A DNA stretch of 64,000 nucleotides from a virus, in the UHGV virus genome UHGV-1368455; one strand, 5' to 3'. Position 1 is the first letter of the stretch; each line of letters begins with the position of its first letter. The position numbers were made by a program, and so were the translations under genes. Shown in pieces: positions 5,467-60,746 of the stretch. The notes beneath the pieces are model-generated. The model was not told where the DNA came from. It ran no database searches and saw only the letters and a list, made by a program, of their open reading frames with translations.

Positions 5467-6150
5467 ATGAGCAGTATTGCACAACTTGTTTCAGAGATTG
5501 CTCATTCCGTAAAGCAACCTGATAGTGTTCCTGTTCGTAGAGCTATTAAACTTGGTATAATTCATGCTCGAAACGAAGTCATAAGACGTAGTTTTGCTAA
5601 TCATAATTATACTGACAAAGTTCTACAACAACGTTTTAAACTTACTCTTATTGATGTTCCTGACGGTGACCTTTATGGTTCTGATAAAGTTGTTACATCT
5701 CAAGTTAAAAGAACTATTAATAAAGTTCCTCGTCCTGTAAGACTTACTAATAATCTTCCTTTTCATTCTGTTCGTACTGCTGGTGTACGAAATCCTATTG
5801 AAATAGCTTTTGTTAAAGAAGCTACTGCTAAATATTATAATGCTCTACCTGGGTTTTGTCCTAATGTTAGTTATGATTATATTAACGAATATATCTATGT
5901 GAACTCCCCCGTAGAGGGACAACTTGCTTCAATTAGTGCTATTATTGTTGAATCTGTATTTGAATATCCTCATATTATAGAAACTGAAACTGTTGAAGGT
6001 AAACTTGATATAGATACTATTGATGATAATGATGAATTTTTACTACCTGAAGATATGATTACTACTGTTAAACAACTTATTCTTTCTACTTGGAATCCAG
6101 ATATTATTCGTGATACTAATGAAGTTCCTACTCCTAATATAGTACAATAA
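5467..6150 (+). CDS. hypothetical structural protein
   Basis: 227-aa ORF. Contains one in-frame copy of the dispersed repeat (NSPVEG). Confidence 0.6.
   Translation: MSSIAQLVSEIAHSVKQPDSVPVRRAIKLGIIHARNEVIRRSFANHNYTDKVLQQRFKLTLIDVPDGDLYGSDKVVTSQVKRTINKVPRPVRLTNNLPFHSVRTAGVRNPIEIAFVKEATAKYYNALPGFCPNVSYDYINEYIYVNSPVEGQLASISAIIVESVFEYPHIIETETVEGKLDIDTIDDNDEFLLPEDMITTVKQLILSTWNPDIIRDTNEVPTPNIVQ
5902..5921 (+). repeat. dispersed CCCCGTAGAGGG element, copy 1
   Basis: AACTCCCCCGTAGAGGGACA. In frame in the CDS at 5467-6150, encoding NSPVEG. Confidence 0.9.
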
Positions 6151-7079
6151 TGGTAGTAGATATTAAATTCAAAGACTTTTATCTTCAATTTATTGGTTCT
6201 ATAAAAGAAAATATTAAAAAAAATCAAGAAATAATAGAAGATACTACTAAAAAGCGTGATGAAATCTATAATGAAATTAATAACGCAAAAGATTTACTTA
6301 AAGATAAACTTAATATAGAATTAGATAAATATACTGAATGGAAAGATAAAATTTATAATTCTACTCTTGCTTTATTCGGCGTTGCATATTATTATATAAA
6401 TCGAACGAGTGATACAATTATTAAACATCATCTCGGTAATATTATTCAGTTTACATATTGTCTAAAAAAGATTTATATGGCTGAACATCGTATTGAAATT
6501 AATAATAAAGCAAGTAAACTTACTTATCGTCAATATACTCTTATAGTAAGTAGTTATTACAATAAAGTTCATAAATTTCTTCTTAATGGTTATGGTTATA
6601 AATATCAAGGAGGTATTGGAACTTTTATTATTAATCATTGGAAATTTGATAATACTAAATCTAAACGTATGGTATTAGATTATAATGCTACTAATAAACG
6701 TAAAAAAGAACTTATAGCGAAAGGTCTAAAACCTTACGATGATAAAGAAGCCGCATGGTATAAAGCTCGTCATATTCCTTATGACGGAATTGATTATAAA
6801 GTATATCAAACTAATAGTAGTTATTATGAATTTTGTTTTATTAAATCGAGTTTAGTTCATAGTAAACGCGGTTATGATTATAAACGTACTGAATATGTTT
6901 CTGCTAAATATAGAGGTATGAGTTATCAAAAAATTGCTGATACTTTCGTTAAGAAAGATGAAGATGTTTATGATATGCAATTGGATATTAAATATAAACT
7001 TAATATACTTCTATATCGTAATCCCACAATATATCTAAACTTTGTTCGTAATGCAGAACAAAACCGTTACAAATATTGA
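6150..7079 (+). CDS. hypothetical protein (K/Y/N-rich)
   Basis: 309-aa ORF. The start overlaps the upstream stop. Confidence 0.6.
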   Translation: MVVDIKFKDFYLQFIGSIKENIKKNQEIIEDTTKKRDEIYNEINNAKDLLKDKLNIELDKYTEWKDKIYNSTLALFGVAYYYINRTSDTIIKHHLGNIIQFTYCLKKIYMAEHRIEINNKASKLTYRQYTLIVSSYYNKVHKFLLNGYGYKYQGGIGTFIINHWKFDNTKSKRMVLDYNATNKRKKELIAKGLKPYDDKEAAWYKARHIPYDGIDYKVYQTNSSYYEFCFIKSSLVHSKRGYDYKRTEYVSAKYRGMSYQKIADTFVKKDEDVYDMQLDIKYKLNILLYRNPTIYLNFVRNAEQNRYKY

Positions 7080-7893
7080 GCGTATAATTGCTAAAATAGA
7101 CAATGATTTCAATCCTGATAATAGTGATTGGATTCCTCGTGTTGGAGCATGGTGTATTGACGCAATGTCTATGCTCGATTGTCTTTGTACTAAACGTACT
7201 AAGAAAACTATTACTGTTAAAAACAGAATAGCTTATGTTGGTTGTCCTATTAATAATATGAATATCAAAATATATGATTCTAATGGTTGTGAAATAGAAG
7301 AAGCTAATAATAAGAAATGCGGATGTAATAATCCCTCTACGGGGGAGGTTGAACAATCTACAACGACAAAAATTAGTACGGCAGTTAGTCGTTATGAAGC
7401 CAATGCGCCTATTACAAAAGCTCCTGATTATTTATTAGCTGAAACTCTTAATGATAAAGAATGGCCTGGACGTTATAGAATTAATGAATTTAATTATGTT
7501 AATGGACAACAAAATATTAATAAAAATTATGTTATTACTGGAAATGATAAAATAGAACTTAATTTTGATACTAAATGTATTACTCTCGAATATGATACTA
7601 TTGAAACTGCTCAAACTCAATTTGGTTGCGAACTTCCAGTTATTCCTAACAATGGAATACTTATTGAAGCTCTAACTTATTATTGTATGTATAAGATGTT
7701 ATGTAGAGGTTATAAACATCCTGTATTTAATCTTGCAGCAAGTCAATATGGTACTAATCCTTATTATATATGGACACAACTTAAAGATGAAGCTAAACGT
7801 TCTGTTATAGCTAATAGAGTTGATACTGATGAAGATATTAGTAAAATGTTTCGTAGTGCTTTTTATATTGATACTTTTGACCCTCGTAGATAA
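7042..7893 (+). CDS. hypothetical structural protein
   Basis: 283-aa ORF that overlaps the upstream ORF by 38 nt. Contains one in-frame repeat copy (NPSTGEVEQ). Confidence 0.55.
   Translation: MFVMQNKTVTNIERIIAKIDNDFNPDNSDWIPRVGAWCIDAMSMLDCLCTKRTKKTITVKNRIAYVGCPINNMNIKIYDSNGCEIEEANNKKCGCNNPSTGEVEQSTTTKISTAVSRYEANAPITKAPDYLLAETLNDKEWPGRYRINEFNYVNGQQNINKNYVITGNDKIELNFDTKCITLEYDTIETAQTQFGCELPVIPNNGILIEALTYYCMYKMLCRGYKHPVFNLAASQYGTNPYYIWTQLKDEAKRSVIANRVDTDEDISKMFRSAFYIDTFDPRR
7329..7355 (-). repeat. dispersed element, copy 2 (reverse orientation)
   Basis: TAATCCCTCTACGGGGGAGGTTGAACAA. In the CDS at 7042-7893, encoding NPSTGEVEQ. Near-identical 27-mer to copy 5. Confidence 0.9.
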
Positions 7894-12472: not shown

Positions 12473-14089
12473 ATGACTAAAGTTAAAAGACCTAATATAG
12501 TGCGTGGAGGAATTGCTGTTCCTCTTGGACGTAACTATTATTATATGCGAGGTAGAAAACATGAACAAGGTGGTATTGATATTGGTAAAAATCCTCGTAC
12601 AGGACTTGAAGTTGAAGACGGTGAAGTTATGCACGTTGGTTCTAAAGATATTAAAATATTTAGTTCTCTTCCTTTTCTTAATGGTAAATCCCCAGCTCAA
12701 AGAGTTATGAGTGGTGAAAATTCTAATGCTGTTTTTAATGCTCAGGAACGTTTTAAGAAAAGAAATAAGATTAATGATGATGGTACTAAAAAGAAACGTA
12801 TGGGAGGATTAAATAGAAGTAAAGATTATGGTTCAAAATCTAAACCTTATCCTAATGTTAAGAAAAGCGATTTTGCTGGAGGTGGCAGAAGTTATCCTAT
12901 TCCTACTAAAGCCGACGCTCGTGACGCATTAAGACTTGCTGGACTACATCATAGACCTGATGTTAAAGCTAAAGTTTATCGTAAATATCCTGAACTTAGA
13001 AAGAAAGCTAAAGTTGGTGGTTTATATTCTGTTACAGTTAATGGAGAAACAAAATTATATCAATATCCCTCTACGGGCAAGATAAAGAAGTCTAAAACGA
13101 CTAAATCGGCTGGACGTTCTAAATTTGCTGGAGGAGGTGATACTAAAGATAAAGATAAAGAAAAAGATAAAGTAAAAATTATAACTGCTAAAACTTTTCC
13201 TGAAGTTAATCCATTTACTTTTACTGAAAATCCTCCTGCTACTACTCCTACCGAAAATGTTGAAGCAACTATTAATGCTAATGTTCCTCGTGCTTTTGCA
13301 AAACGTAATAGAGATATAACTGACCCAGAAAAACTTAATATTGCTTATCAAAAAGCTTCAGGTACTTATCCTAATTGGTTTCAACGTACTTATAGAAATA
13401 TAAGAAATTATGTTAATGAACACCCCGATACTGTCAATGAAGGTATTGGACTTGCAAGTAATGTTGTTTCTTCTCTTATAGGTAATAGTATAAATAGACG
13501 AGTGCTCAATAGTCTTCGTTATTCTCCTGCTCCTATTCCTCAACGTGCTGCAAAACTTAAAACTCGAATCAATATTAATCCTCAACTTGATAGAATGAGA
13601 GAAAGTCTTGCTGCTTATGAACGAGCTATCGATACAAATACTGGTAGTTCTCAAGTTGCTCTGGCTCGCAAACAGAGAGCAAGGTTAGCAAATGTTCTTT
13701 CTACTAATGAACTTTATGGTAATAAAGAAAATACTGAGACTTCTCTTATTAATCAAGATAGACTTAATCAACAAGAAGTTGCTAATAGAAATATTGATGC
13801 TTATAATACTTGGGCACAAGGTAAAGCTGATTTTGAAAATAGTATAAGACAACAAAAAGCTGAAAATAATATTGCTTTGATGAATAATCTTAATGCTGGA
13901 GTTCAAAATGTTATTAATAATATTCAGCAACGTAGAACTGAAGGAAGAAATATTAAAGCAATGCTTCTTGCTTATCCTGATTTACCTGCTGAACAACTTC
14001 TTGCTTCTGGTCTGATTACACAGAACGAATACGATACTTATCGTAAAGGTTATCCTCTTAAACGTAAAAAGAATAATAATAACGAATAA
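12473..14089 (+). CDS. Lys-rich basic virion protein, hypothetical
   Basis: 538-aa ORF. Contains a degenerate repeat copy (YPSTGK). Confidence 0.6.
   Translation: MTKVKRPNIVRGGIAVPLGRNYYYMRGRKHEQGGIDIGKNPRTGLEVEDGEVMHVGSKDIKIFSSLPFLNGKSPAQRVMSGENSNAVFNAQERFKKRNKINDDGTKKKRMGGLNRSKDYGSKSKPYPNVKKSDFAGGGRSYPIPTKADARDALRLAGLHHRPDVKAKVYRKYPELRKKAKVGGLYSVTVNGETKLYQYPSTGKIKKSKTTKSAGRSKFAGGGDTKDKDKEKDKVKIITAKTFPEVNPFTFTENPPATTPTENVEATINANVPRAFAKRNRDITDPEKLNIAYQKASGTYPNWFQRTYRNIRNYVNEHPDTVNEGIGLASNVVSSLIGNSINRRVLNSLRYSPAPIPQRAAKLKTRININPQLDRMRESLAAYERAIDTNTGSSQVALARKQRARLANVLSTNELYGNKENTETSLINQDRLNQQEVANRNIDAYNTWAQGKADFENSIRQQKAENNIALMNNLNAGVQNVINNIQQRRTEGRNIKAMLLAYPDLPAEQLLASGLITQNEYDTYRKGYPLKRKKNNNNE
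13065..13079 (-). repeat. dispersed element, copy 4 (degenerate)
   Basis: ATCCCTCTACGGGCA. In the CDS at 12473-14089, encoding YPSTGK. Confidence 0.6.
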
Positions 14090-16786: not shown

Positions 16787-19700
16787 ATGCCTAATAATGT
16801 AATTACAGGAAATTCTTTCGTAGATAAAATACGTCCTTATATTCCTAATCCCGAATATAATCCTAAAACCAAGAAAGGTCGTGTTCAACCTCCTATTCTT
16901 GTTGATAGTTCTGCTCCAGCTATTAATGATAACTTTATGTCAAGAACTATGAATAGTGTTAATAGACTTACTTTTACTGGAAGAGAACTTGGTTTTACTA
17001 ATGAAGAAATAGAGAGTGATGCCGATTTAGGCATTACTCTTTCTCCGTATAATACTGTAGATGAACTTAATAAAGCAAGAGCAGATAGTCAATCTGCTCT
17101 TTCTCAGTTTGGTAACTTTCTTGCTCAAGCTGGTTTAGGTGAAGTTCTTGTTGGTACTATGGAAGGATTTGGTAATATCTTTGATGGAGCCAAACAATTT
17201 GTTACTGGAGACAATTATGAATCTTCTGCATGGACTCGTTTTTGGGAAGATATACATAATGATATTAAAGATAAATTTAAGATTTATCGTGAGAACCCTA
17301 ACGCTGATTGGGACTTGTCTGACTTTGGTTGGTGGATGGATAATGCTGTCAGTGTTGCTACTACTGCTTCACTTATGATACCTGCTGCTGGTTGGGCAAG
17401 AGGTATTTCTATGCTTGGTCGTATAGGTAAAATAGGAAAAGGAATTAATGCTGTAACTCGTTGGGCAAGTAAAGGTCTTAGTAATTGGAGCAAAGCCGCA
17501 AGAACTGGTAATAAGTATGCTCAAATAAGAGCTGCAGCTTCTATTAATAAAACAATTAATAATGCCGCTGAAATAACTGGTACTGCTCTTCTTAGTAGAA
17601 CAGGTGAAAACTATATGGAAGGTCGTCAAGTTTATGATGAAGTTTATACTAATAGTAAAGAGAATCTTGATAATATGCCAGATACTGAATTTCAGAAGTT
17701 TCTTGCTCGTCATCCTGAATTTAGAAACCAATCTAAAGATGACATTGCCAAAGAAATAGCTCGTCAATCTGCTAACGAAACTTTTTATAATGATTATTGG
17801 ATGTTACTTATGGATATTCCTCAGTTCAAAGCTCTTGGTAGTTTATGGGGAAAACCTATGCAACGTGCTTCTAAAGCGTCTGAACGTATTGCTGCTGAAA
17901 ATGTTAGACGTACTCTCGCTGGTAAAAAAGCTGAAGACCTTATAAAAAATAATCTTCTTAATAGAACAAAAGAAGGTTTCAAATATGCTTTCAAACATCC
18001 TACTAAAAGTGCTGTCATTACTCAACTTGGTGAAGGCTTTGAAGAAATGTATCAAGGTATTCAAAGCGAAAAAGGAATGGAAGTTGCTACTAAATATTTT
18101 GACCCATCTTTTACTCCTCGTTCTCTTACTTCTTATTTTACTGACGGCAGTATATGGGAACAAGGATTTTGGGGTTGGATTGGTGGTATGGCTTTTACTC
18201 CTGCCGGACAAGCAATTCAAAAAGGCTCTCATGCTATTAAAGGTTTATATAATAAAAAACACATGACTGCCGAAGAATATGAACAATGGCAACGTGCTAA
18301 TCGTAATATAGGAGCTGAAAAAATTAATAATGTTACTATTACTGCAAAAGAATTTATTGACAATATGAATAAAATTAACGAAGGAAAAAATCCATTTAAT
18401 TTTGTTGTCAATAAAGATACTGGTACTAAGATTATTAAAGATGGTCAATTAGTTGAAGAAACTATTGACGATGAACAAAAAGAATTACTGAAACAAGAAG
18501 CTATTGATAAATTTGTAACAGATACAGCTTTCGATGCTATTGATAGTGGTGTTTATCCACTTATGCAAGAAATACTTAATAGTTCTGAATTTGACCAATA
18601 TCTTACTAAAAATGGTGCTACAGTTAACGGCAATGATAAAGCTATAAGCAAAGAAATTTCTAATCGTATGGAAGCTATTTCTGATATGTATCAGAACGAA
18701 CTTCGTAACGTCAATAATCTTACCGATAAAGCAAATCCATTTGCAACCATTGCTGCTGCTCGTAGTTTAGTTAGAACTAAATTACAATTAGAAGATTATG
18801 AAAATCAGTTAGGTAATATCGCTGCTCGAATGGAAGAAGCTAACGATAACCAAACTGATTTTAATCCTTATATTGAACGTAGAAAATATAATTATGCTAA
18901 ACGTCAATTAGATAATATTGAAAGACAAGAACAAATTATTGCTACTCAATATGCCAATAAAGAAATTGGTGCATCTGCTCGTGACCAATATATGAAAGAA
19001 CTTGATGCACAAAGAAAAGTATGGCAAGATTATATTATGAATAATACTTCTAAAGGTGCGATAGAAGAAACTATGAGAACTATTCAGGAAGATGAGAGTA
19101 TTCCTGATAATATGAAAAAAGATTTTTATACTATTATGAGAAACTTGGATAAACAAATTGCTTCTGCTACTGAAGTGTCTATTCCAAGTGATACTATTAA
19201 AGAACTAATAGATGAAGAAATAACTATTGAATCAAGACGTAATTATACGCAAGCTCAACTGCCATTAGATGAAGCTGATTATAAAAATGTTTATAATGAG
19301 TTTGCAATGGCTATGGACCAAATGTATCGTAAACGTATTGATGGAGATATTGATACTGTTAAAAATTATCTTAATAATGCTAAAGATTTAGATGAGGCTA
19401 TTAATAATGTTCTATCTGAAAATACAGGTATTAGTAAAGTCGATAACGCTCTTAAATCTATTCGTTATGGTTATTTTAATCAAAACAAAGATATGAGAGG
19501 TCAAATTACTAATAATCTTCAAATGGAACTTATTATTGAAGAAGCTCGTAAAAATCGTAAAAAAGCTGAAAATTTACAAGCTGAAGCTGAACAAAGTGGT
19601 ACTGTTCTTCCTGAAAGCGAAGCTGGTCAACAACAAGAGCAAGAAGAAGCTGCTATTAATCAACAAGAAACACAAGATGAGAATGGTAATCCCTCTACGG

Positions 19701-22700
19701 GGGAGGTTGAGCAAACAACAACAGCAAATACTGACACAACTATTGCAACAGATAATACTAATCTTGAACGTGCAGAATCTCAACAAGCACAAGCAACTGT
19801 TGGTGCTCCAGAGCAAGAAGTTGAAACTCGTCAAACAGGACATGAACATGATGTTAATCCTATGCAAGTTGATGTTGCACAAGATGAAGCAGAAGTACAA
19901 CGCAAACTTGCTCAAACAATAGATGCTAATTCTCTTAGAGCTGAACTTGCTGCTCGTAAATATGTTATGCAAATAGGTTTTAAAGAAGGTGCTAAACTTG
20001 ATGCTATTACACAAGCTTTACAAAATAAAGACGAAAGTAAACTTGCAGAGTTTATTCAAGAAATTACTGATTTCCTTACTAAACAAGGTTTTGATGATGA
20101 TATTTCTAAAATAATGGCGCAACGTGCTCTTGTTAGTACTATAAATATGTATGGCGCTATGAATGAAAAAAGTGCATTTGGAAGACTTGCGACTCAATTA
20201 GCAATTGGTCTTAATGAAGCTGCTGCAAAAAAATATAGTGCTACTGAACTCATTAACGGAAAAGGTCTCGATGAAGTAGTTGATGCCTTTATGGAAGAGT
20301 TTGTTAAGGTTACTAATAATCTCAAACTTAGTAATGGCAAATATATTATTAATCTTAAAACATTATTTAATTATCTTATTCATAATGAAAGTATTGATGG
20401 CAAGACTGCTGTTCAAATTTATAATAATCTTAATGAATATATAGCTTCGTCAGTTAATACTAAATATATATTTACAGGTTATGATACTAAACGCGGTCTT
20501 TATCAAACTGGTGAAGAGTTCATTCATCAAGTTGAAGAACAACGCAAACAAGAGATTTCTTCTCGCAATCAAATGCACATTCATCTTATTGAACCTGAAC
20601 AAAGAAATAAAGAGTTCAATGATGCAATGCTTGCTGCTGCCAACGGCGCCCCATCGCATATTGAAGAACAAAGAAATAAAGCAGGCGAACTTACTAACTT
20701 AAATGTTATTGTTGATTGGGAAAAGAATGGTAAGAAAAAATCTACCAAAATAGGTATTCTTCGTACTGTTCATTATTCACAAGATGCTCGTAAGATATAT
20801 CCTAATTCTCATTATAGCGGCTTCAGAAATGAAATTACAAGAAATGATGATGGTACTGTAAGTCTTGATTGTGATAATCTTTTCTATGCTATTTGTGATG
20901 CAACTACTACTGATGGATTTAATCTTCGTAATGCTATTGCTGATTATTTTGAAAAACGTTTAGCTTTACTTCAAGATGAAAGTCTTACTCCTGCCGGATT
21001 AAATAAAGCTCTTAATGCTCTTATTACTCCTGAATTTATCAGTAGTATTGTAGATAATCCGCTTATTGAAGAACTTATTAATCAAGGTAGATATAAACCT
21101 TATGTTGAAGCTGAAGATATAGAAGATATACATGACGACGAGAAGAGTATGCGACGTCTTACTGCTATTCGTCTTGCCGAAGATATTTCTAAAGTACTTT
21201 TCTATGCTGATGGTTATGCTGAAAATAATGTAGCTTCTGAAGTTAACGATTTCGCTGTTGATAGTTATACACTTCGCGAACGTTATAAAACATGGAAAGA
21301 TAAAGTATATGATAATTATACTCATACTTATGAACTTCAAAAAGCTATAAATAATAATGAAAATAAAAGTGCAACTATTAATGTTAATGTAGGTTTTGTT
21401 ACTCGATTAAATGAAGCTCCAGAAGATTCTCAACCAAATATTGCCGACCAAGATTTTAATCCTATACCTAATACTGATGGATACACTCCATTTGTTTATT
21501 ATAGTAATGGAAAACTTGTAGATGAATATGGTAACGATTATGGTTATGCTCCGTCTGGATTTGGTGATTATTCTATGGGTTTTATTGTTCATACTGATGG
21601 AGTTCAATCTTTTATAGCTGCTTGTAGAACAACTGCTAATGTTAAAAATACTAAAATGCATAAAGCTGTTATTGCCGAAGTAGCTGATATTATTACTGCT
21701 CAAATTAATAATATTAATAATTCTAATCATGCAGATAATTTTAATGTTGTCAAAGAAAGATTAGAAGAACTTTTTGGTCCTGGAGGTCTTTTCTATTTTG
21801 GTAATATTAATCTTGTTACTGATTCTAATGAACGATTTATTACTATACAATATAAACAAGGTAGAGGTAAAGATGCAAAATATACTAATATAACAACATT
21901 TCATTCTATTAATAAAGATGGAATTACTCCAAGTAATGCCATAACTATATATGATAACGCCGGTAAAGTACTTACTAATATTACTTCTATTAATGCTGAA
22001 ACTCAAGGAATACTTAATAAACTTACTCAAACTTTGACTGATAATTTTGTTATTAATAGAAGTCAAATAGGCATGACCAAACAAACTAAATCTGGTGGTA
22101 CTCCTCGAATATTTACTTGGAATGGCGAAAACTTTATTGTTCATCTTGGCGCTAAAGATTATACTTATAAAAATTATGGAGATTTTATTTTTCAAACTGC
22201 CGGTTTTACTACCAATCTTGTGAGTAAAAATGGTAGCTTTGTTACGAGATATATTGATACTCGTCATGTTACTATGGATACTCATATTAATAAAAAACAA
22301 AAAATTACTCAAAAAGCTAATACAGCTGTTTCTGATTATCTTTATAATGAACGTAATCCAAAACGTAAAACAGCCGATACCGAAGAAATACTTAAACGTG
22401 CTGGTGTTCCACAAGAAAAAATAGATATACTTCTCGGTACTAATAGTAAAATTCCTTTTGTTACTAAACAAATATCTTTATCTAACGTTGATGATGGTAA
22501 GACTAATGCTTTTTATAATAAAAAAGATAAAAAGATATATATAACTCCTCGTGGAGCTTCCGTTATGAATGGTAGTTCTACTAATGCTATTCGTATTATA
22601 TTACACGAAAATATACATAGATTATTTAATAGTAGTAAATATACTAACGCTGAACGTCAACGAATTGTTACAGAACTTGAAGATGTTTATAATTTTGTTA

Positions 22701-38275: not shown

Positions 38276-38293
38276 TCACAATTAAAGTGCATC

Positions 38294-38320
38294 CATCCCT
38301 ATACGGGGGAGTTCGACGAT
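38294..38320 (-). repeat. dispersed element, copy 10 (variant, intergenic)
   Basis: CATCCCTATACGGGGGAGTTCGACGAT. Left arm of an intergenic inverted pair with copy 11. Confidence 0.75.
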
Positions 38321-38379
38321 TAATACCGACAATAACAATAGTATTAATCGCCGTAATAGCACTAGACGTTATTGACGTT

Positions 38380-38402
38380 GGGCTACCCCGTAGAGGGATA
38401 AA
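38380..38402 (+). repeat. dispersed element, copy 11 (intergenic)
   Basis: GGGCTACCCCGTAGAGGGATAAA. Right arm of the pair. Same GGGCTA-prefixed form as copy 9. Confidence 0.9.
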
Positions 38403-38428
38403 TAAAGTCAATTTGTTATTTATAGCTT

Positions 38429-44967: not shown

Positions 44968-45706
44968 TTATATTTTGATAAACGTCCAAAACTTTATAAA
45001 ATAAATTAAATAAAGTAGTATTATTAGTAATAGTATATTCGCAATCAATATCAATTTGTTCAGATATATGTATGGAATTGTCATCGTTGTGATTATTTTT
45101 TTCACGAGTGACCATAATAACTCCCCCGTAGAGAGGATGTTGTTGTATGGTTTTAGCTTCATTCGTAAATCTAACATCTGGAATAAGACAAATACCATAC
45201 AAACGATTAATATTGTCAACTTTATTCATAGTAGCTCGTATCCAAATGTCGTCACCAAGATATTTTCTACATATATCAGTTCCAAAAAATTGTAATATAG
45301 TTCTAATTTTTATAACACGAAGTTTTTTAGTATTTTCTAATTGATAACTAAAATATTCAGGAGAATTAACAAGAGAACTATATTCAATAATCTTATAAAC
45401 TTCTTGATGATGAATTACATCTTTACAATCATAAAATTTGCAATTATCAATACAAAAGAAAGAATTATCTTTATAGTATTCATCATCAAGATATTCTCTT
45501 GGTATATTATAAATAGCAGATACACAATCTCTAAGAGCGTCGGCAAAATGAACAGATTTACGTTTAGCTCTATCTTTATTAGAAACTCTATTAGCAATCC
45601 ATTCTTGATAATTAGCTTTAGTAACTCCAACAGTGTGTATATAAGCAATCATATTAGCAATGGTATCTTTGCCAGATTGTTTTTTACCACATATTCCAAT
45701 AATCAT
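44933..45706 (-). CDS. P-loop deoxynucleoside monophosphate kinase-like protein
   Basis: 257-aa ORF. N-terminal IGICGKKQSGKDTIANMI P-loop and LIPDVRFTNE resemble T4 gp1-type dNMP kinase. Contains a variant repeat copy (PLYGGV). Confidence 0.5.
   Translation of the reverse strand: MIIGICGKKQSGKDTIANMIAYIHTVGVTKANYQEWIANRVSNKDRAKRKSVHFADALRDCVSAIYNIPREYLDDEYYKDNSFFCIDNCKFYDCKDVIHHQEVYKIIEYSSLVNSPEYFSYQLENTKKLRVIKIRTILQFFGTDICRKYLGDDIWIRATMNKVDNINRLYGICLIPDVRFTNEAKTIQQHPLYGGVIMVTREKNNHNDDNSIHISEQIDIDCEYTITNNTTLFNLFYKVLDVYQNIIARYENNKTKR
45119..45138 (+). repeat. dispersed element, copy 12 (variant)
   Basis: AACTCCCCCGTAGAGAGGAT. Inside the - strand dNMP-kinase-like CDS, where it reads PLYGGV. 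Confidence 0.75.
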
Positions 45707-46594: not shown

Positions 46595-47805
46595 ACAAAT
46601 CTTGTAGTTTTAATATGCCATGGGAGTTGATTAACTCCACTTCTTTCGCCATACTCTACAAATACTTTCTTGCCAATATAATGATTCTTTGCTTTAAGTA
46701 TAGATTTTTGATAAGATTGAGTACCACCAATATGTATTTCAAAAGTAGCATCATTAATATCATTTCTACATACAAGAAGAGGAATATCTGGACGTTTAAT
46801 ACCTTCGGGTTTAATATCAATTACCTCAAATATACCATCAGTAGATTTTTTATACTTAATCATTATATTAGCAGAACGTTTACCAAAAGCATATTCGGCA
46901 TCTGGATTACGAAGAATAAGACCTTCAAATCCACAATTAATATTATTATTACGAGCAATTAATGCTTCAGTAGGAGTAGAAACTTCAACATGAGGAAGAA
47001 CAACTAATCTTTCAGTATTAGCTAAATGTTCTTCTTTATTAACAAAGGGTTTAACAAACCAACTCAATTTAGCTTCAAGTATTTCAGTACGATAATATTG
47101 TAGTATATCTTCAACAGCTAAATCATAACACCAAAATTGAATAAATTTATTTTCTTTACAATAAGGGTCTTTAATAAAATGATTCAGCTGATTAACAGTA
47201 TAACCGGGAATATATAATTCGCCATCAAGAACTATATTTTCAGAAGCCATACGAGCAAGAAAATCTTTTGGCATAATTTCGAGAAGATAATCTTCAAGAT
47301 AAGTAAGACTATTCCAAAATGTTCCTTCACGAGATTGAAAACGAAGTCCAATAGGCTTAAATAAACTACTTCCAATAAGATGAGCACTAATAAAACATCT
47401 AAGACCATTAATTTTATATTGTCCTATATAAGAACTACAACGGTCAAAGACTTTATCATCATAAACTTTAGCAAGCATAGCAAGTAAAGTATCATTAGCT
47501 CCAGCACGATTATAAGGCAGATATTTATCAAGATAAGATAACAATTCTTCCTCTACGGGGTAGTTCGTATTATCTTTAATATCAGCAAGAGTACGATAAC
47601 CAGTTTTAATCTTTGCTTTTATACGTGAGCTAATTTCATCTTCAACTTTACGTCGAGTGGCAACTACTTCATCAAGCATAGTTTTACCTATAATACCATG
47701 ACGAATATGTATAAAATGGTCATCTCGTTTAACAGCTTCCCATACACATATTTGTCCATAATTATTACGACGATAAAGAGCAGTTAAATAATTAAACGGA
47801 TACAT
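46591..47805 (-). CDS. ATP-dependent DNA ligase, with an atypical motif I
   Basis: 404-aa ORF. Motif I-like KINGLR (47404-47415 region), motif III IVLDGELYIPG, motif IV EGLILR, motif V IMIKYKK. Contains a variant repeat copy (NYPVEE). Confidence 0.65.
   Translation of the reverse strand: MYPFNYLTALYRRNNYGQICVWEAVKRDDHFIHIRHGIIGKTMLDEVVATRRKVEDEISSRIKAKIKTGYRTLADIKDNTNYPVEEELLSYLDKYLPYNRAGANDTLLAMLAKVYDDKVFDRCSSYIGQYKINGLRCFISAHLIGSSLFKPIGLRFQSREGTFWNSLTYLEDYLLEIMPKDFLARMASENIVLDGELYIPGYTVNQLNHFIKDPYCKENKFIQFWCYDLAVEDILQYYRTEILEAKLSWFVKPFVNKEEHLANTERLVVLPHVEVSTPTEALIARNNNINCGFEGLILRNPDAEYAFGKRSANIMIKYKKSTDGIFEVIDIKPEGIKRPDIPLLVCRNDINDATFEIHIGGTQSYQKSILKAKNHYIGKKVFVEYGERSGVNQLPWHIKTTRFV
47549..47567 (-). 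repeat. dispersed element, copy 13 (variant)
   Basis: TCCTCTACGGGGTAGTTCG. Inside the - strand ligase CDS, where it reads NYPVEE. Confidence 0.65.
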
Positions 47806-48898: not shown

Positions 48899-50025
48899 CT
48901 ATTATTAGTTCATAAACATTATTAATAGGAATAGATTTAACTAAATCAGCAAAATCTTTTGCTTTATATTTTTTATTAATAAGAAAAGGCTCGATTCCAA
49001 AATTACGTTTAAGCCAAATAGCTTCACGTTTACCAGTACTATCATTATCCATTAAAGATACAATACTTCCATTGATAGATTTATTTTTAAGCCAATCATA
49101 TTCATTTTGACGAAGACGATAAGTTTCATGAGGAATATTTATAACTCCAACTCGCATCTTATCAATATAGCCGATATTGTCAATACGAACTCCCCCGTAG
49201 AGGGATAATGCTTGCTTTATTGTGCATCCTAAGCTAACTCTATCTTTTGTAGACTTAGTAAGTACAATAATATCATAATCATTTCTGTTAAGATTATAAA
49301 TACCTTCGAGATGATTACAATTAGTTATAAATCTATCTTGACCTTTCTTACGTTTAGGAAAATATAATTTAATATTATATATACCATTTCTATCAATACC
49401 AAGGTTATAACCATAACAAGGGTCTTTTATGGTATAATAATATTTAGGTTCTGGATTAACTTTTCGATTAATATAATATTGTTCAACAGGATAAATAAAA
49501 TTAATATTAAGAAAAGAAATAGAAACATTAAATTGTTTCCAATATTCTATATCTTGATTATTCCAATCTCTAACAACAAGTTCTATTACTGGCTTTTTAC
49601 GTTTAATATTTGCAATAGCAGTATTAATGGAATTAATAAGAGTAATGTCTTTTTCTTGTCCATAAAATATATCCTTAAATGTAAAAGTAATATGCCTAAG
49701 AACTTTAATAAAATCATTTTTATTAGATATATCATAAGGTTTACTATACATTTCAGACATAATATAAGCAACAGTATCAAAACAATCGCCCCAAAATCCA
49801 TCATTACCAAAATCCTTAAATTTAAGTTTTCCTTTATTATTATATCTAAAACCAGCAGTAGGATGAACGTCTACACGAAGAGGATTACAAATAAGTTCTC
49901 CAGTATCTATACAACGTTGTATTTGTTCAATAGGAATACCAAGATATGTAGCAAAAATATTAACTTGTGATACTTTTTCAAGTATCATTTGTTTAGTAAG
50001 TCGAGAACTATTTATATTTCTCATC
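48798..50025 (-). CDS. putative DnaG-like TOPRIM primase
   Basis: TOPRIM-like DNDSTG…E pattern near the C-terminus (…SLMDNDSTGKREAIWL…). The track ORF extends to 50096 but its N-terminus would translate the terminator hairpin. ATG at 50025, or at 49988, lies after the terminator. Contains a repeat copy (SLYGGV). Confidence 0.45.
49186..49210 (+). repeat. dispersed element, copy 14
   Basis: CGAACTCCCCCGTAGAGGGATAATG. Inside the - strand primase-like CDS, where it reads SLYGGV. Confidence 0.9.
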
Positions 50026-50030
50026 GGTAC

Positions 50031-50077: not shown

Positions 50078-50098
50078 TTAATTTAAGCACTAACAATA

Positions 50099-53080: not shown

Positions 53081-54457
53081 CTACAAAACAATACCGTTAA
53101 TATTTTCATCATAATCAAAATTATTTTCTGTTTCATCTATATAATTGACAAACGGCAAAGGTTTATCCTTATTAATCTTTACTTGTTCGATAGTATTATT
53201 ACAATAAACACGATAAGTTTGTAGAGTTCCAGCACCAAAATTAATATTAGTAAAACGTAGCTTCAAATCTCTAATCGAATGACATAATGCTGATGTAAAA
53301 ATAACGCAATTACAAGCTATATTTAGCTTTGTATCGGACGCTTCTTTGATAGATAAGGCATTGATAATCTGATTGTTAAATAGCCGTTCATTAAGCGTGG
53401 ACTGGGCAGCCGATTTAATAATCTTTGGTTTACCCTTATTAACTCCACTCTTATAAAGCATAACATTACCAGTCATATCAGTAACAATAGCATCCTCAAT
53501 ACAATCATGATAATCTCCACATTTTATTTGTGTTTGATTATCATTGATATATTTAGTAATTTTAGCAGCATATTCTCCTCGCTTAGAAACTATGAGTATC
53601 TGTTTATCAAGATTAGCAAGTACAATATCTAATATAGTTTGAAATTTAGCTTCATTATCGCTAACAAAATCTCTTCGTTTTTTAGCTATATTAAAGAAAT
53701 TATACGCTTTCTCGTAAAGAGCATTAGGATTGTAAGTATCATCAATTTGTTTAATAAAATCAATATTAGTATCAAGAGTTTCATTCCATCCATTTTGTTT
53801 AGCAAAACTATCTCTAAATTCAGCAGCACTTATTCCAAGATTAGGAACACCAACTTTACATTTTTCAATAACATCTAAACTACCAAATATAGAAATACAA
53901 TTAGTAATATAATCGTCATATTTACTATATTGTTCTGCATCATCAATAGACAAATCAACCCCATACCGATGTTCCTCTACGGGAGAGGTCAAACGGTCAA
54001 CAGCAACAGTAGCAGAAATATCTGTTACCATTATATTTGGTAATATAGAACGAACATTATTAATAAATTCATTATTCATAATATTTTGAGTAAGAATACA
54101 AAGAGTAAATTTACTTTCATCAGTAAGATGCTTAATAATATCATAGTTATTAACTCCGATTATAATAGTAAAATGATAAGTATAGTGATACCTACCATTA
54201 ATAAATTGTTCAGTAAGTAACTTAATATTAGTCATATTAAGACTTTTATCTTTAAGATAACCTACTAAACGCATTCGCATTCGATAATCATTAAGAACTA
54301 TAAATGTATTAGCATTCGGAGTTTTATTTAATATTTTAGTAATAGCATTGTAAACAAGTTCAAATACAACTTCATCATCAAAACAATAAAGACTTGATTT
54401 ACCTTTATTATTTCGAAAACTATCGAGAACTTGTGTAAAATATGTATTTCGGTTCAT
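53081..54457 (-). CDS. hypothetical replication-module protein (458 aa)
   Basis: No clear Walker motifs seen. Contains a variant repeat copy (TSPVEE). Confidence 0.45.
   Translation of the reverse strand: MNRNTYFTQVLDSFRNNKGKSSLYCFDDEVVFELVYNAITKILNKTPNANTFIVLNDYRMRMRLVGYLKDKSLNMTNIKLLTEQFINGRYHYTYHFTIIIGVNNYDIIKHLTDESKFTLCILTQNIMNNEFINNVRSILPNIMVTDISATVAVDRLTSPVEEHRYGVDLSIDDAEQYSKYDDYITNCISIFGSLDVIEKCKVGVPNLGISAAEFRDSFAKQNGWNETLDTNIDFIKQIDDTYNPNALYEKAYNFFNIAKKRRDFVSDNEAKFQTILDIVLANLDKQILIVSKRGEYAAKITKYINDNQTQIKCGDYHDCIEDAIVTDMTGNVMLYKSGVNKGKPKIIKSAAQSTLNERLFNNQIINALSIKEASDTKLNIACNCVIFTSALCHSIRDLKLRFTNINFGAGTLQTYRVYCNNTIEQVKINKDKPLPFVNYIDETENNFDYDENINGIVL
53972..53994 (-). repeat. dispersed element, copy 15 (variant)
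   Basis: TTCCTCTACGGGAGAGGTCAAAC. Inside the - strand CDS at 53081-54457, where it reads TSPVEE. Confidence 0.6.
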
Positions 54458-54459: not shown

Positions 54460-56814
54460 TTAATCGAAGTCTTCATCATCAAAAAGAGATTGATATTGAC
54501 CACTCATTTGTTTAAGGAGTGCTTTACCACTTTTAGTACCTTTATTTTTATCTCCTTTCATATTAGGAGAAATACGTAGTTTGATAGGGTCAATAATTTT
54601 AAGAGCTTCTTTATAATAATAATTATAATTAATATTTCTAAACTCTATTCGCTTATCATCGAGAGAATTAAGAATTTGAACTTTTTGTCCAGCACATAAA
54701 CCATTCTTAGCAAAACTATCATTGTGAACTTTATAAATAAATCCACCTTGACTAGAAGCATAAAATCTTACATATCTTTGCATAGGAATAATTTTAGTAC
54801 CTTCAATATATTCAACATGAAATTGCTTACCAACATTTTGTGTAAGACAAAAATCAAGAATATTCTTACTATTATAAAGAGTTTCAAGTACAGGAATACC
54901 TTTGAAATAATTAACAACAGCACGAGCAACAATTGGCATAGAATAACCTTTTGATAAATCTTTAAGATACATAAATTCATTTAATGCACCTTTCGCATCA
55001 GTTTTACCATTAAGTTCTTCTACAAAATAGTTATTAATATCTCTATTAATATAATAAAGATATTCTTCACTATCTGCATCAAGACCAGTTAATTTCTTCC
55101 AATCAGCGGCAATTTTATCAAAAGTATCTTTTTTAGATTTATATAGTTTCACAACTATACCATCTGTATTAGCACTTATAACTTCAATACCATTAAGCTC
55201 AAGTTCTTCACATAGCATCATAATCATTAACTGACCATTAATAGTAACTTTGAGAGTGGCCATTCTATCAAATAAATCCCCTTTCTCAAAACCAAATTTA
55301 CCATAAATAGAATTAATGACAATTTTTAATACTTGAGCAAGCACATCAGATGGAATACCATCAATAGGTTCATTACTATGTTTAGCTTTAATACGAGTAT
55401 CTTTAATCCAAGTTACAAGTTTAGTAAAAACACTTTCAATCATGTGTTTAGGAGCAATATGATATACAGACATAATAGAAGGATAAAAGCTACTTATATC
55501 CCAATGTACATAAATATAACTATCATCAGCAATATGTTCCCAAATACTGTCGTTCTTGTTCGTAGCAATCTCTCTAATTCGTTCTATCTCCCCCGTAGAG
55601 GGATAATCGGTGAACATTATTTTACTTTTGAGTTCTCTTGGCGTATCTTGACTATGTAAACCGCCAGTTGCAATAGTATAAGTAAGATTACCTAATTTTA
55701 CTTCACGAATGAACGCATCTTTACCAACACTATATACAACAACTTTCTTCATATCTGCAAGCAAATCTTGAAGAGGTTTAGTCTTAAATTGAATAAACGG
55801 AAAAATAACACGTTTGAAAGCCATAGCAGTACGTTCAGTCTTTTGTCCACGCCATTGTTCAGGAGCAAGACCACTAAACTCACTGTAAAACTTAATAAAC
55901 ATTTTATCCGCAATATTACTTCGAGAACTACTAAGAACATCTATTTTATAAGCACGAGAAATACTATAACGCAATTTAATTTCATCCATGTAAAGTCTAA
56001 TCATTTCGCATACAATGAAAACATCATTTGCATTATAATACATAGTAGGTTCAATCCATTCGTCGATAATATATCTATCCCACTTTTCAACAAGTCTATT
56101 AACTTTATCTGCAGGAAGACCTTTTAATGTAAGATTATTTTGATATAAATGAATATCTTTATCGCTAATTGGAGGAAGCTCATATTCAAGAATTTCATAC
56201 CATTGTAAATTAATAGAAGTCTGTTTAAGACCTTTACCAAAATAAATAGTATCTCCTTTCTGATTTTTACCTTTACCAACTTTATTAAGTGCAAAGATAG
56301 TCATAATATCAATATCTACATAAGGTAGCTTATTCTTTTTAAGATTGGCAAGAAGATAATCATGACGAGCAAGTTCTTCATTATCTTGCATACTAATAAT
56401 ATGTTTACTCAACTCATATAATTTAGTAATAAGTTCTTTTGTTGAATTAACTTGATTAGCCCACATAAGTAAACCACTAACCATAAGTTTATCATATTTA
56501 GAACTATTATAACCAAACATATCAGTACGAATAGCTTTTCCATCATCATCAACAAATGGACGCATATTATTAATAGTTGCAAGCATTTGAAGTAATTGAC
56601 TATCGTCTTTATCAGTAATATAAAAAGAACAACGTTTAACAATAGCAAGTCGTTCTTTAATTTCTTTTACAGTAAGTTTTTGAACGAGAGGAATAGGTTT
56701 ACCTTTCTCGTTTACACAATCAGCAAATACTCTTAGATAATCATTAACATCAGTAATAGTAATGCTAAAGAAGTTAGGTAAAACTTCAACATCGTAAGAA
56801 CGAGAAAGTATCAT
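54460..56814 (-). CDS. family B DNA polymerase with a 3'-5' exonuclease domain
   Basis: 784-aa ORF. Exo I YDVEV near the N-terminus, PolB motif A HWDISSFYPSIM, motif B KIVINSIYGKFG, motif C ISANTDGIVV. Contains a repeat copy (YPSTGE). Confidence 0.8.
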   Translation of the reverse strand: MILSRSYDVEVLPNFFSITITDVNDYLRVFADCVNEKGKPIPLVQKLTVKEIKERLAIVKRCSFYITDKDDSQLLQMLATINNMRPFVDDDGKAIRTDMFGYNSSKYDKLMVSGLLMWANQVNSTKELITKLYELSKHIISMQDNEELARHDYLLANLKKNKLPYVDIDIMTIFALNKVGKGKNQKGDTIYFGKGLKQTSINLQWYEILEYELPPISDKDIHLYQNNLTLKGLPADKVNRLVEKWDRYIIDEWIEPTMYYNANDVFIVCEMIRLYMDEIKLRYSISRAYKIDVLSSSRSNIADKMFIKFYSEFSGLAPEQWRGQKTERTAMAFKRVIFPFIQFKTKPLQDLLADMKKVVVYSVGKDAFIREVKLGNLTYTIATGGLHSQDTPRELKSKIMFTDYPSTGEIERIREIATNKNDSIWEHIADDSYIYVHWDISSFYPSIMSVYHIAPKHMIESVFTKLVTWIKDTRIKAKHSNEPIDGIPSDVLAQVLKIVINSIYGKFGFEKGDLFDRMATLKVTINGQLMIMMLCEELELNGIEVISANTDGIVVKLYKSKKDTFDKIAADWKKLTGLDADSEEYLYYINRDINNYFVEELNGKTDAKGALNEFMYLKDLSKGYSMPIVARAVVNYFKGIPVLETLYNSKNILDFCLTQNVGKQFHVEYIEGTKIIPMQRYVRFYASSQGGFIYKVHNDSFAKNGLCAGQKVQILNSLDDKRIEFRNINYNYYYKEALKIIDPIKLRISPNMKGDKNKGTKSGKALLKQMSGQYQSLFDDEDFD
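55587..55607 (+). repeat. dispersed element, copy 16
   Basis: TCTCCCCCGTAGAGGGATAAT. Inside the - strand PolB CDS, where it reads YPSTGE. Confidence 0.9.
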
Positions 56815-60565: not shown

Positions 60566-60644
60566 CTAAATCAGTATCAAAGGCTTCACTATGAATAGCA
60601 ATACCATCATCTTCATAAATGTTATTCATACGAGATAGAATTAA

Positions 60645-60667
60645 ATACCCCGTAGAGAAGATAACTG
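60645..60667 (+). repeat. dispersed element, copy 17 (variant, intergenic)
   Basis: ATACCCCGTAGAGAAGATAACTG. Left arm of the second intergenic inverted pair. Confidence 0.7.
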
Positions 60668-60724
60668 TGTTTATTGCAACTTTACTAATAATAGTATGGC
60701 ACTAAGCAACAACTAAACATTAAT

Positions 60725-60746
60725 AATCCCTCTACGGGGTAGATTT
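60725..60746 (-). repeat. dispersed element, copy 18 (intergenic)
   Basis: AATCCCTCTACGGGGTAGATTT. Right arm of the pair with copy 17. Confidence 0.9.

Follow-up and report, generated by a model that had tools for sequence, protein, structure and literature searches.

A conserved and evenly spaced DNA motif in the genomes of crAssphage and its relatives

Several kinds of short DNA signal are dispersed through genomes in many copies. DNA uptake sequences (DUS of Neisseriaceae, USS of Pasteurellaceae) are over-represented motifs of bacterial chromosomes with a conserved core and lineage-specific 'dialects', which occur on both strands, in permissive parts of coding genes in several frames, and as inverted intergenic pairs that form hairpins (PMC3630211; 10.1101/2025.10.24.684340); they are read by a competence pilin during transformation. 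Localized single-strand interruption sites of T5-, phiKMV- and LUZ24/tf-like phages are phage-encoded consensus sequences of 7-19 nt, located at similar positions in related phages, with single-base lineage variants attributed to co-evolution with the nickase; they are confined to one strand, number 4-14 per genome, are unevenly distributed and are dispensable in T5 (PMC3517423). Stoperators of Cluster A mycobacteriophages are asymmetric repressor-binding roadblocks, roughly 25-35 per genome, dispersed and sometimes located inside ORFs, with subcluster-specific variants that co-evolve with a phage protein; they are oriented with the direction of transcription and lie mostly at gene boundaries. 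Some bidirectional origins, such as herpes simplex oriL/oriS, are built from inverted initiator sites flanking an AT-rich palindrome and confined to the origin, whereas ColE2 Rep exemplifies an origin-specific primase with a long, specific DNA site. Chi sites (5-8 nt) are strand-specific, host-encoded signals over-represented in the host chromosome at roughly one per 5 kb per orientation. Finally, Rickettsia palindromic elements (RPE) are palindromic insertions of 100-150 bp with presence/absence polymorphism, found inside unrelated protein-coding genes without breaking the reading frame.

Here we analysed a 64,000-nt stretch (hereafter, the window) of the virus genome UHGV-1368455, in which the initial annotation had reported at least 18 copies of a 12-mer on both strands, 14 of them within CDSs. 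This observation is confirmed. CCCCGTAGAGGG or its reverse complement occurs 11 times exactly, rather than 13 times as initially counted, with five additional copies carrying one mismatch and two carrying two mismatches, for a total of 18 copies between positions 5907 and 60739, 10 on the plus strand and 8 on the minus strand (Table 1). Dinucleotide-preserving shuffles predict 0.00 exact copies and 0.31 copies with up to two mismatches. Two further hits with three mismatches (12593 and 50981) lack the flanking consensus and look like chance occurrences. Fourteen copies lie in the CDSs named in the initial annotation and four are intergenic, in two inverted pairs. The encoded peptides, (S/Y)PVE(G/E) (x6), PRRG (x2), PSTG(E/K) (x4) and (S/P)LYGG (x3), represent four of the five stop-free frames, and the extended peptides reported to be shared by unrelated proteins were confirmed as well (NPSTGEVEQ.TT at 7333 and 19691; NSPVEGQ.AS at 5907 and 23125). 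Alignment of 116 non-redundant copies revealed a conserved block of ~17 nt, aCTCCCCCGTAGAGGGA, with sharp edges; the window lineage additionally displays a weak 5' block, G.CG.T...GA, at positions -23 to -13. The scores in a position weight matrix scan of the window are bimodal, with 17 sites scoring at least 22 bits, one scoring 13.5 bits and only chance-level background otherwise.

Table 1. Motif copies and motif-bounded inverted pairs in the window. Orthologous crAssphage sites are in the coordinates of prototype crAssphage; L020, L044 and L047 are relatives of the window phage.
Position	Strand	Core	Location and coding sense	Peptide	Conservation and structure
5907..5918	+	exact	gene 5467-6150 (homologue of crAssphage gp52), sense	SPVEG	lineage-specific; unrelated sequence of the same length in five relatives; no counterpart in prototype crAssphage
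7333..7344	-	exact	gene 7042-7893 (homologue of the tail tubular gp50), antisense	PSTGE	orthologous to crAssphage site 58727; conserved in L020 and L044
11444..11455	+	exact	gene 7893-11777, sense	SPVEG	conserved in L020 and L044; no counterpart in prototype crAssphage
13067..13078	-	1 mismatch	gene 12473-14089, antisense	PSTGK	orthologous to crAssphage site 51406
19691..19702	-	exact	giant gene 16787-23500 (homologue of gp45), antisense	PSTGE	orthologous to crAssphage site 44953 (proteins only 26% identical)
23125..23136	+	exact	near the 3' end of gene 16787-23500, sense	SPVEG	region cannot be aligned to prototype crAssphage
26500..26511	-	1 mismatch	virion RNA polymerase gene 23532-37700, antisense	SLYGG	orthologous to crAssphage site 39092; inverted pair with 26949
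26949..26960	+	exact	gene 23532-37700, sense	PRRG	absent at the orthologous place in L047 and in prototype crAssphage
32814..32825	+	exact	gene 23532-37700, sense	PRRG	
38290..38405	.	1 mismatch (38297-38308, -); exact (38386-38397, +)	intergenic inverted pair, end of the replication-gene module		bounds a partly palindromic spacer; RNA fold -46.5 kcal/mol, z = -5.5; same gene interval in crAssphage holds the 121-bp palindrome 28070-28190
45124..45135	+	1 mismatch	dNMP-kinase-like gene 44933-45706, antisense	PLYGG	young site, present in only 8 of 39 relatives
47549..47560	-	1 mismatch	DNA ligase gene 46591-47805, sense	YPVEE	retained in 41 of 42 relatives; orthologous to crAssphage site 18157
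49193..49204	+	exact	primase gene 48798-50096, antisense	SLYGG	retained in 43 of 43 relatives; orthologous to crAssphage site 16626
53973..53984	-	2 mismatches	458-aa gene 53081-54457 (homologue of crAssphage gp17, annotated SNF2-like), sense	SPVEE	retained in 50 of 50 relatives at 33-54% protein identity; orthologous to crAssphage site 11765
55591..55602	+	exact	PolB gene 54460-56814, antisense	PSTGE	retained in 42 of 45 relatives; orthologous to crAssphage site 10169
60640..60747	.	2 mismatches (60648-60659, +); exact (60728-60739, -)	intergenic convergent inverted pair, head of the replication-gene module		outer arms of an AT-rich imperfect palindrome, candidate origin-like element; fold -36.8 kcal/mol, z = -6.0; a convergent pair recurs upstream of the replication module in many relatives

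To assess how old the motif is, we examined 51 relatives selected by PolB homology alone, and all 51 carry it. It is present in 32 copies in prototype crAssphage (18 on the plus and 14 on the minus strand), where it accounts for the top k-mers of the genome, and in ~30 copies in the cultured crAss002, with lineage dialects surrounding an invariant core and a conserved unit of 16-26 nt. Eight of the 14 genic sites of the window sit at the orthologous position and in the same orientation in prototype crAssphage, although the respective proteins are only 26-55% identical, and the sites in the PolB, 458-aa, primase and ligase genes are retained among the relatives (counts in Table 1) at 33-68% protein identity. 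The genic copies use four to five reading frames and, within the core, synonymous positions never vary, except for one R position, whereas the surrounding protein diverges. The pattern that had been singled out beforehand as indicative of a peptide motif, namely, the same peptide at the same positions encoded by divergent DNA, is not what is observed.

The initial interpretation is partly supported. It correctly held that the DNA rather than the peptide is the conserved entity, and its alternative, a genome-wide recognition site for a DNA-binding, nicking or modifying activity, is the one that the evidence supports. By contrast, the favoured reading, a selfish in-frame mini-element akin to RPE, is not supported. 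When orthologues were inspected for an indel of 21-30 bp coinciding with the element, as the initial annotation had suggested, none was found: at 5907, relatives contain unrelated sequence of equal length, and at the other sites, the motif is present in the orthologues. Most sites are fixed at orthologous positions and orientations across family-level divergence. The ~17-nt unit is far from the 100-150 bp of RPE and is non-palindromic, with no compensatory covariation between the flanks that would indicate a hairpin. The terminal inverted repeats, target-site duplications and decayed copies typical of MITEs are lacking as well, given that the flanks carry no information and the scan detected no relics. 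The copies in coding regions do keep the reading frame open, as RPE do, but this is trivially true of any conserved intragenic DNA site.

The distribution of the sites is not random either. Eleven of 32 sites lie in the 6.3% of non-coding DNA (p = 2e-6), and the sites are evenly spaced (gap CV 0.46 vs 0.95, p = 1e-4), including on each strand separately, with one site every ~5-7 kb (CV 0.26-0.36, p about 0.002 or lower), although the null model was uniform placement and did not account for coding tolerance. With positions held fixed, the assignment of orientations is also non-random (p = 0.0007, 0.0015, 0.0017 and 0.0001; Fisher combined 8e-8). The periodicity is not strict, however, because the two double-length gaps in the window hold no weak sites. 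Close pairs were inverted in 24 of 24 cases, 20 of them convergent and four divergent, including the window pair 38297/38386. The intergenic pairs bound AT-rich palindromes of 60-145 bp with stable predicted folds (z from -4.5 to -11.9). One of these, at 95738-95882 in crAssphage, lies upstream of repL gp88, where a published study appears to place an origin, directly upstream of the first repL and supported by a coverage peak (PMC10983915); because the study gives no coordinates, we matched its verbal description to the sequence by inference, and its origin is itself largely a prediction, so that this correspondence does not decide whether the palindrome coincides with an experimentally mapped origin. 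Host and other bacterial genomes lack the motif: in a search of 185,579 species genomes with the window's 17-mer only, we found just 18 isolated hits, none in Bacteroidales, suggesting that the factor reading the motif is probably phage-encoded.

Taken together, these results show, with high confidence, that the motif is a cis-acting DNA signal under purifying selection, and neither a mobile element nor a peptide motif, which the family Intestiviridae has kept at fixed positions for a very long time. Each genome carries about 30 copies of an 11-nt invariant core (CCCCrTrrAGG) with lineage-specific flanks, located in intergenic DNA where possible and otherwise in tolerant stretches of genes, in whatever frame avoids a stop codon. 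What follows is inference. Because each strand carries its own evenly spaced series and neighbouring sites are never direct repeats, it appears somewhat more likely than not that the signal is read strand-specifically by a phage-encoded factor that co-evolves with it, although the alternation of orientation could also result from selection against neighbouring direct repeats in a RecT-encoding phage. More tentatively, we favour the possibility that the sites are defined start points for DNA synthesis. In this view, a primase or initiator would recognize the C-run-GT-purine block on the template strand and lay down a G-rich primer that is stable in a 30% G+C genome; solitary sites would start lagging-strand fragments for forks moving in either direction, and convergent inverted pairs flanking AT-rich palindromes would act as bidirectional origins.

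Some features are in line with this scenario. The inverted recognition sites around an AT-rich palindromic spacer recall the herpes simplex origins, although about 25 further solitary copies are spread through the genome; the 5' flank, which is the direction in which a primer laid on the motif strand would be extended, is hypervariable at 7 of 7 sites regardless of coding sense; and the GT(A/G) step preceded by a C-run resembles the extended template sites of the T7 and T4 primases (5'-GGGTC and 5'-GTT). However, known primases recognize 3-5 nt rather than 11-17 nt, a spacing of 5-7 kb per strand is long for Okazaki fragments, and the four divergent pairs do not fit an origin layout. The flank asymmetry has other possible causes, with only a weak lineage-specific 5' signal detected, the protein that reads the motif is not identified, and no biochemical or read-level data were included. 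A bolder version of this scenario, which is not excluded but appears unlikely, is that Crassvirales replicate with hard-wired start sites, whereby a phage primase or initiator would begin DNA synthesis only at an 11-17 nt signal, written every 5-6 kb on each strand even through essential genes, with convergent pairs serving as bidirectional origins and different families using different words (CCCCrTrrAGG in Intestiviridae and CTTCTGG[A/T]G in Steigviridae). If so, this would be the first genome-wide, sequence-defined priming code in any replicon.

Intestiviridae include the most abundant virus of the human gut, yet how these phages replicate and organize their DNA is essentially unknown. The motif is the strongest sequence signal in these genomes, is better conserved than the proteins it runs through and appears to be undescribed, as no account of it was found in the searched literature. 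It shows that a virus can maintain a spaced, strand-aware punctuation of its genome inside coding sequence, a kind of pattern that has so far been discussed mainly for bacterial chromosomes (DUS, Chi, KOPS). The ~26-mer offers an experimental handle on the protein that reads it, two cultured systems are amenable to mapping of nicks, primers or protein binding at the sites (crAss002 on Bacteroides xylanisolvens and C. communis on Phocaeicola vulgatus), and the motif-bounded palindromes are specific origin candidates. On the practical side, the sites must be preserved when these phages are recoded or engineered, the dialects are simple lineage markers, and motif density can flag mis-binned crAss-like contigs.

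Among the alternatives, a double-stranded 'self tag' or architectural binding site analogous to DUS is unlikely but survives best. In this case, a phage DNA-binding protein, for example, a virion cargo, packaging, ejection-ratchet or genome-organizing protein, would bind the motif irrespective of orientation and need a site every few kb, whereas the intergenic inverted pairs would be secondary features also acting as RNA hairpins or terminators. The motif shares with DUS the conserved core with dialects, the roughly equal numbers on both strands, the location in permissive coding regions in several frames and the inverted intergenic pairs forming stable hairpins, and the absence of hairpin covariation suggests that it is read as a linear duplex or single strand; overall even spacing is compatible as well. 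Nevertheless, an orientation-blind binder does not predict a regular series on each strand, unless this arises from avoidance of direct repeats, flank divergence follows the orientation of the motif, and no candidate binding protein was identified. The motif also differs from DUS in being viral, with about 30 copies per 95 kb fixed in position over deep divergence and with pairs bounding palindromes of up to 145 bp; given that the carrier is a virus, it cannot, by context, belong to the DUS family, and the resemblance is one of pattern only, reading by a competence receptor not having been assayed.

Site-specific nicking of virion or replicating DNA at the motif by a phage nickase, here on both strands, appears more doubtful. 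The short consensus at conserved positions with lineage variants matches the described nick sites, the signal is strand-specific, and the phage encodes a DNA ligase and nucleases. However, all described systems nick one strand only and are unevenly distributed, whereas the sites reported here are on both strands and evenly spaced, and dispensability in T5 does not match conservation this deep. Moreover, tight inverted pairs 27-36 bp apart would yield opposed nicks amounting to a double-strand break in AT-rich DNA, and no nickase conserved across the family was recognized; physical nicks were not looked for. Similarly improbable is a Chi-like control signal or 'self' mark, such that a helicase-nuclease translocating along either strand would meet a correctly oriented site within about 6 kb and switch from degradation to recombination or protection. 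The density per orientation (about 1 per 5-6 kb) is similar to that of Chi in Escherichia coli, and the phage encodes RecT, a PD-(D/E)XK nuclease, an SF1 helicase and a Gam-like inhibitor, but the 11-nt core plus flanks is far longer than any known Chi, the motif is specific to the phage family and, in the search with the window's 17-mer only, is not over-represented in any bacterial genome and hence is not a host Chi, there is no precedent for a phage-private Chi, and the palindromic origin-like pairs are left unexplained.

A transcription or RNA-level signal (promoter, terminator, pause site, RNA-processing site or stoperator-like roadblock) is very unlikely. Although the intergenic pairs fold into very stable hairpins in transcripts and lie between genes or modules, and the number of asymmetric sites with lineage variants is reminiscent of stoperators, the orientation of the motif is unrelated to the direction of transcription (8 sense vs 7 antisense genic copies in the window and 10 vs 11 in prototype crAssphage), and no repressor was recognized among the genes scanned, which were only part of the gene set. 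Most copies lie deep inside ORFs rather than upstream of genes, the non-transcribed strand carries an equally regular series, and the promoters described for the crAss-like phage phi14:2 are of a different kind, being host sigma70-like, intergenic and sense-oriented, with early transcripts sharing no motif. Finally, the selfish in-frame mini-element is largely refuted by the evidence outlined above, and no transposase was found, even though the copies occur in many unrelated genes, the encoded peptides look like loops, the flanks are rich in indels and a few sites (5907, 26949 and 45124) are lineage-specific.

The motif CCCCGTAGAGGG or its reverse complement occurs 11 times exactly in the window, and 18 copies are found when up to two mismatches are allowed, whereas dinucleotide-preserving shuffles, a comparison proposed beforehand in the initial annotation, yield expectations of 0.00 and 0.31 copies, respectively. 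The observation made in that annotation thus holds: its total of 18, the coordinates and the genomic context are right, although the split into 13 exact and 5 inexact copies should read 11 exact, 5 with one mismatch and 2 with two mismatches. Fourteen copies are located inside the genes that it named and four are intergenic. The genic copies use four of the five stop-free frames, encoding SPVEG-type (six), PRRG (two), PSTGE-type (four) and LYGG (three) peptides, and are split about evenly between the sense and antisense orientations. Alignment of the copies shows a sharply bounded block of ~17 nt, aCTCCCCCGTAGAGGGA, and pooling of 116 non-redundant copies from relatives leaves essentially no information in the flanks. 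A weak additional 5' block, G.CG.T...GA at positions -23 to -13, is specific to the lineage of the window and explains the longer peptide matches seen previously, but does not support the existence of a long bipartite element. A weight-matrix scan is bimodal, with 17 sites scoring at least 22 bits, one scoring 13.5 bits and the rest being chance background. There are no eroded copies.

The motif is a family trait rather than a peculiarity of this genome. The exact 16-mer occurs many times in about ten ~90-kb IMG/VR contigs that are roughly 70% identical to the window at the DNA level, and every AT-rich locus carrying the motif is an Intestiviridae relative. Given that these contigs were ascertained by the motif itself, we additionally retrieved 51 loci by PolB homology alone (53-68% protein identity); all of them carry the motif, at recurring offsets and orientations. 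The prototype crAssphage (Carjivirus communis, BK010471) contains 32 copies of gg.tagACyCCCCGTrGAGGATGgA, which make up its most over-represented k-mers, whereas the cultured crAss002, from another subfamily, has about 30 copies of TTCCCCC[G/A]TA[A/G]AGGAG. Hence, the invariant part is CCCCrTrrAGG, and the flanks represent lineage 'dialects'. A scan of bacterial genomes, made with the 17-mer of the window only, returned only 18 isolated hits in 185,579 species and none in Bacteroidales, indicating that the signal is private to the phage and arguing against a host repeat or a host Chi. Two AT-rich hits look like mis-binned phage; two contigs of 26% G+C binned as 'Bacilli bacterium' MAGs (JAZNJG010000062.1 and CALVIP010000007.1), each with two motif sites within a few kb, are probably mis-binned crAss-like phage DNA. 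No relevant paper in the literature searched contains the motif strings, and searches on crAss repeats, motifs, promoters and origins found no description, although coverage of the literature was incomplete and a prior description is not excluded. The motif is a real feature that appears to be undescribed in a very well-known phage, and it comes with directly testable mechanistic hypotheses.

The motif behaves neither as an insertion nor as a peptide motif. Alignment with orthologs, which had been suggested as a way to detect in-frame insertion of an element, showed no indel: at 5907, five relatives have unrelated sequence of the same length, whereas at most other sites the relatives keep the 16-mer intact while the flanks diverge. 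Gene-by-gene mapping to prototype crAssphage places eight of the 14 genic window sites within a few nucleotides of a crAssphage site, with matching orientation, although the host proteins are only 26-55% identical. Across the 51 PolB-selected loci, the core is present at the orthologous position in 42 of 45 cases for PolB, in 50 of 50 for the gp17-like 458-aa protein (at 33-54% protein identity, 43 of them with a perfect 11-mer), in 43 of 43 for the primase and in 41 of 42 for the ligase. By contrast, the site in the dNMP-kinase gene is retained in only 8 of 39 cases and so is young. In crAssphage, five of the six frames are used, and only the frame that would read TAG is never used. The single variable core position (A/G) is often a synonymous third-codon position, whereas the other third-codon positions in the core never change, which shows selection acting on nucleotides; the pattern that would have identified a conserved peptide, namely the same peptide encoded by divergent DNA, was not observed. 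Nor is the site a hairpin or structured element, because no compensatory covariation links the flanks in 306 distinct copies, and Rfam and tRNA scans of the window recovered only a tRNA-Gln. As for the prediction that the encoded peptides fall in surface loops, the PDB alignments of PolB cover only aa 470-612 and not aa 405, so that the PolB site was not mapped onto a solved structure, and the indel-rich flanks are only an indirect proxy.

In crAssphage, 11 of the 32 sites lie in the 6.3% of the genome that is non-coding (p = 2e-6). The sites are far more evenly spaced than random, with a gap CV of 0.46 versus 0.95 (p = 1e-4) and a largest gap of 7.5 kb versus about 14 kb expected, and the window behaves in the same way. 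The null model for spacing was uniform placement, rather than a model of where coding sequence can tolerate the motif. The periodicity is not strict, as the weight-matrix scan found no weak sites in the two double-length gaps of the window. The regularity also holds for each strand separately (CV of 0.31 for the crAssphage + strand, and 0.36 and 0.26 for the strands of the window). With positions held fixed, the assignment of orientations is non-random in four of five genomes (Fisher combined p = 8e-8 over the independent set), and each strand therefore has its own series, with about one site per 5-7 kb. Tight pairs (250 bp or less) are never direct: 20 are convergent, 4 divergent and 0 direct. 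Several of the pairs and sites counted across loci are orthologous and hence not independent; collapsing obvious orthologs gives about 12 versus 4. A link between tight pairs and the physical ends of the genome was not checked, the culturing paper giving no coordinates for the termini. The intergenic pairs form the GC-rich outer arms of long AT-rich palindromes.

Coordinates of motif-bounded palindromes and other features in the window and related phages
Genome	Coordinates	Strand	Feature	z
crAssphage	28070-28190		AT-rich palindrome with an intergenic motif pair as outer arms	-11.9
crAssphage	95738-95882		AT-rich palindrome with an intergenic motif pair as outer arms; in the intergenic region upstream of repL gp88	-11.4
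crAss002	64733-64794		AT-rich palindrome with an intergenic motif pair as outer arms	-10.9
Window	38290-38405		AT-rich palindrome with an intergenic motif pair as outer arms	-5.5
Window	60640-60747		AT-rich palindrome with an intergenic motif pair as outer arms	-6.0
crAssphage (BK010471)	96000-96085 (46000-46085 of locus L110, drawn from this genome)		Two 27-bp direct repeats, tttataccatacatggaatagatttcg, immediately upstream of repL gp88; candidate RepL iterons	
Window	59858-59929	-	tRNA-Gln (anticodon TTG); the only RNA gene found in the window, by both ARAGORN and Rfam	
Window	38429-38800	-	Small protein matching DUF4406 and the PHROG family 'nucleoside 2-deoxyribosyltransferase', next to the intergenic motif pair; may bear on nucleotide or base metabolism	
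Window	7333, 26500, 45124, 47549, 49193, 53973, 55591		Motif sites with ortholog divergence and indels concentrated in the 40-60 nt on the 5' side	

One crAssphage palindrome lies in the intergenic region upstream of repL gp88, and a published study (PMC10983915) places an origin of this phage, largely a prediction but supported by a coverage peak, directly upstream of the first repL. That study gives no coordinates and does not mention the motif or the palindrome, and the matching of its description to these coordinates is our inference. In crAssphage, motif pairs lie near both repL genes, which prompted us to consider RepL as the reader of the motif. However, RepL itself cannot be the family-wide reader, because the window has no RepL among the genes scanned, which were only part of the gene set, and crAssphage repL has its own 27-bp direct repeats, which are distinct from the motif-bounded palindrome located about 120 bp further upstream. 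Other candidate readers are the primase (window 48798-50096), the helicases, the gp17-like protein (53081-54457), the DUF932 protein (39864-40904), the zinc-finger protein and the virion cargo proteins.

Conserved sites sit in a hypervariable, indel-rich island, and when the sites are oriented by the motif, the divergence is asymmetric. At all seven sites examined, the 40 nt on the 5' side of the C-run are less conserved than the 40 nt on the 3' side, for sense and antisense copies alike (sign test p about 0.008; seven sites only). A lineage-specific 5' consensus is present but weak, so that the asymmetry is only partly explained; it could reflect either a fast-evolving part of the site or local mutagenesis directed by the motif.

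Of the two interpretations offered in the initial annotation, the leading one, a selfish in-frame insertion, is rejected, whereas its alternative, a recognition site, is supported and considerably extended, so that the interpretation as a whole was partly right. What the analysis demonstrates is that the motif is a DNA-level signal under strong purifying selection, which is ancient, positionally stable with some turnover, preferentially intergenic and evenly spaced, with non-random strand assignment and lineage dialects. That a phage-encoded reader co-evolves with the signal and reads it in a strand-specific way is an inference. No experimental data were examined. Our preferred reading is that the sites are defined starts of DNA synthesis. 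In this model, a + site would template synthesis towards its own 5' flank, solitary sites on the two strands would start lagging-strand fragments for forks moving either way, and a convergent pair around a meltable AT-rich palindrome would launch two divergent leading strands, that is, act as a bidirectional origin. The model fits the per-strand spacing, the absence of direct neighbouring pairs, the predominance of convergent pairs, the palindrome at the predicted crAssphage origin, the direction of the flank asymmetry and the C-run-GT-purine layout, which recalls the template sites of T7 and T4 primases. However, known primases read 3-5 nt, the spacing is long for Okazaki fragments, a few pairs are divergent, and the alternating orientation could instead reflect avoidance of direct repeats in a RecT-encoding phage.

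An orientation-blind DUS-like self tag, nick sites and a phage-private Chi-like signal all remain viable. In pattern, the closest match is provided by the bacterial DUS/USS, which have dialects, occur in permissive coding positions and form inverted terminator-like pairs. Among phages, the closest match is provided by localized nick sites, which show a consensus at conserved positions and single-base lineage variants, but lie on one strand only and are unevenly spaced. Chi as such fails on length and on absence from hosts, and stoperators fail on orientation. The promoter or terminator reading is disfavoured by the orientation test, and the promoters described for the crAss-like phage phi14:2 are different, being host-type, intergenic and sense-oriented. 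The selfish-element and peptide readings are likewise disfavoured, with RPE and MITE failing on every structural criterion.

Outside Intestiviridae, crAss001 (MH675552; Steigviridae) lacks the motif but carries a different dispersed 9-mer, CTTCTGGAG, in 27 copies (about 2 expected), on both strands, in all six frames and with per-strand regular spacing. DAC17 (MT074138; also Steigviridae) has 22-24 copies of the variant CTTCTGGTG (1.6 expected), a one-base lineage switch, but shows no regular spacing. Only 2 of 7 alignable positions are shared between the two phages, indicating that the positions turn over fast. In cr1_1 (NC_055873; Suoliviridae), only a weak candidate was found, with TTACTTTGG and related 9-mers being moderately over-represented (19 copies versus 1.9 expected; whether this is a DNA-level signal or a codon or peptide effect was not checked), and phi14:2 shows nothing clear. 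Dispersed strand-mixed words may therefore be general in Crassvirales, but the evidence outside Intestiviridae is much thinner than that within the family, where the motif was recovered from all 51 PolB-selected loci.

In many of these PolB loci (L064, L067, L071, L073, L081, L083, L085, L086, L090, L091, L095, L097-L099, L101-L103 and L105), the PolB match spans about 1 kb more DNA than in the window, which is consistent with intron- or intein-type insertions in PolB of many relatives. The insertion lies between the PolB-internal motif site and the next site downstream.
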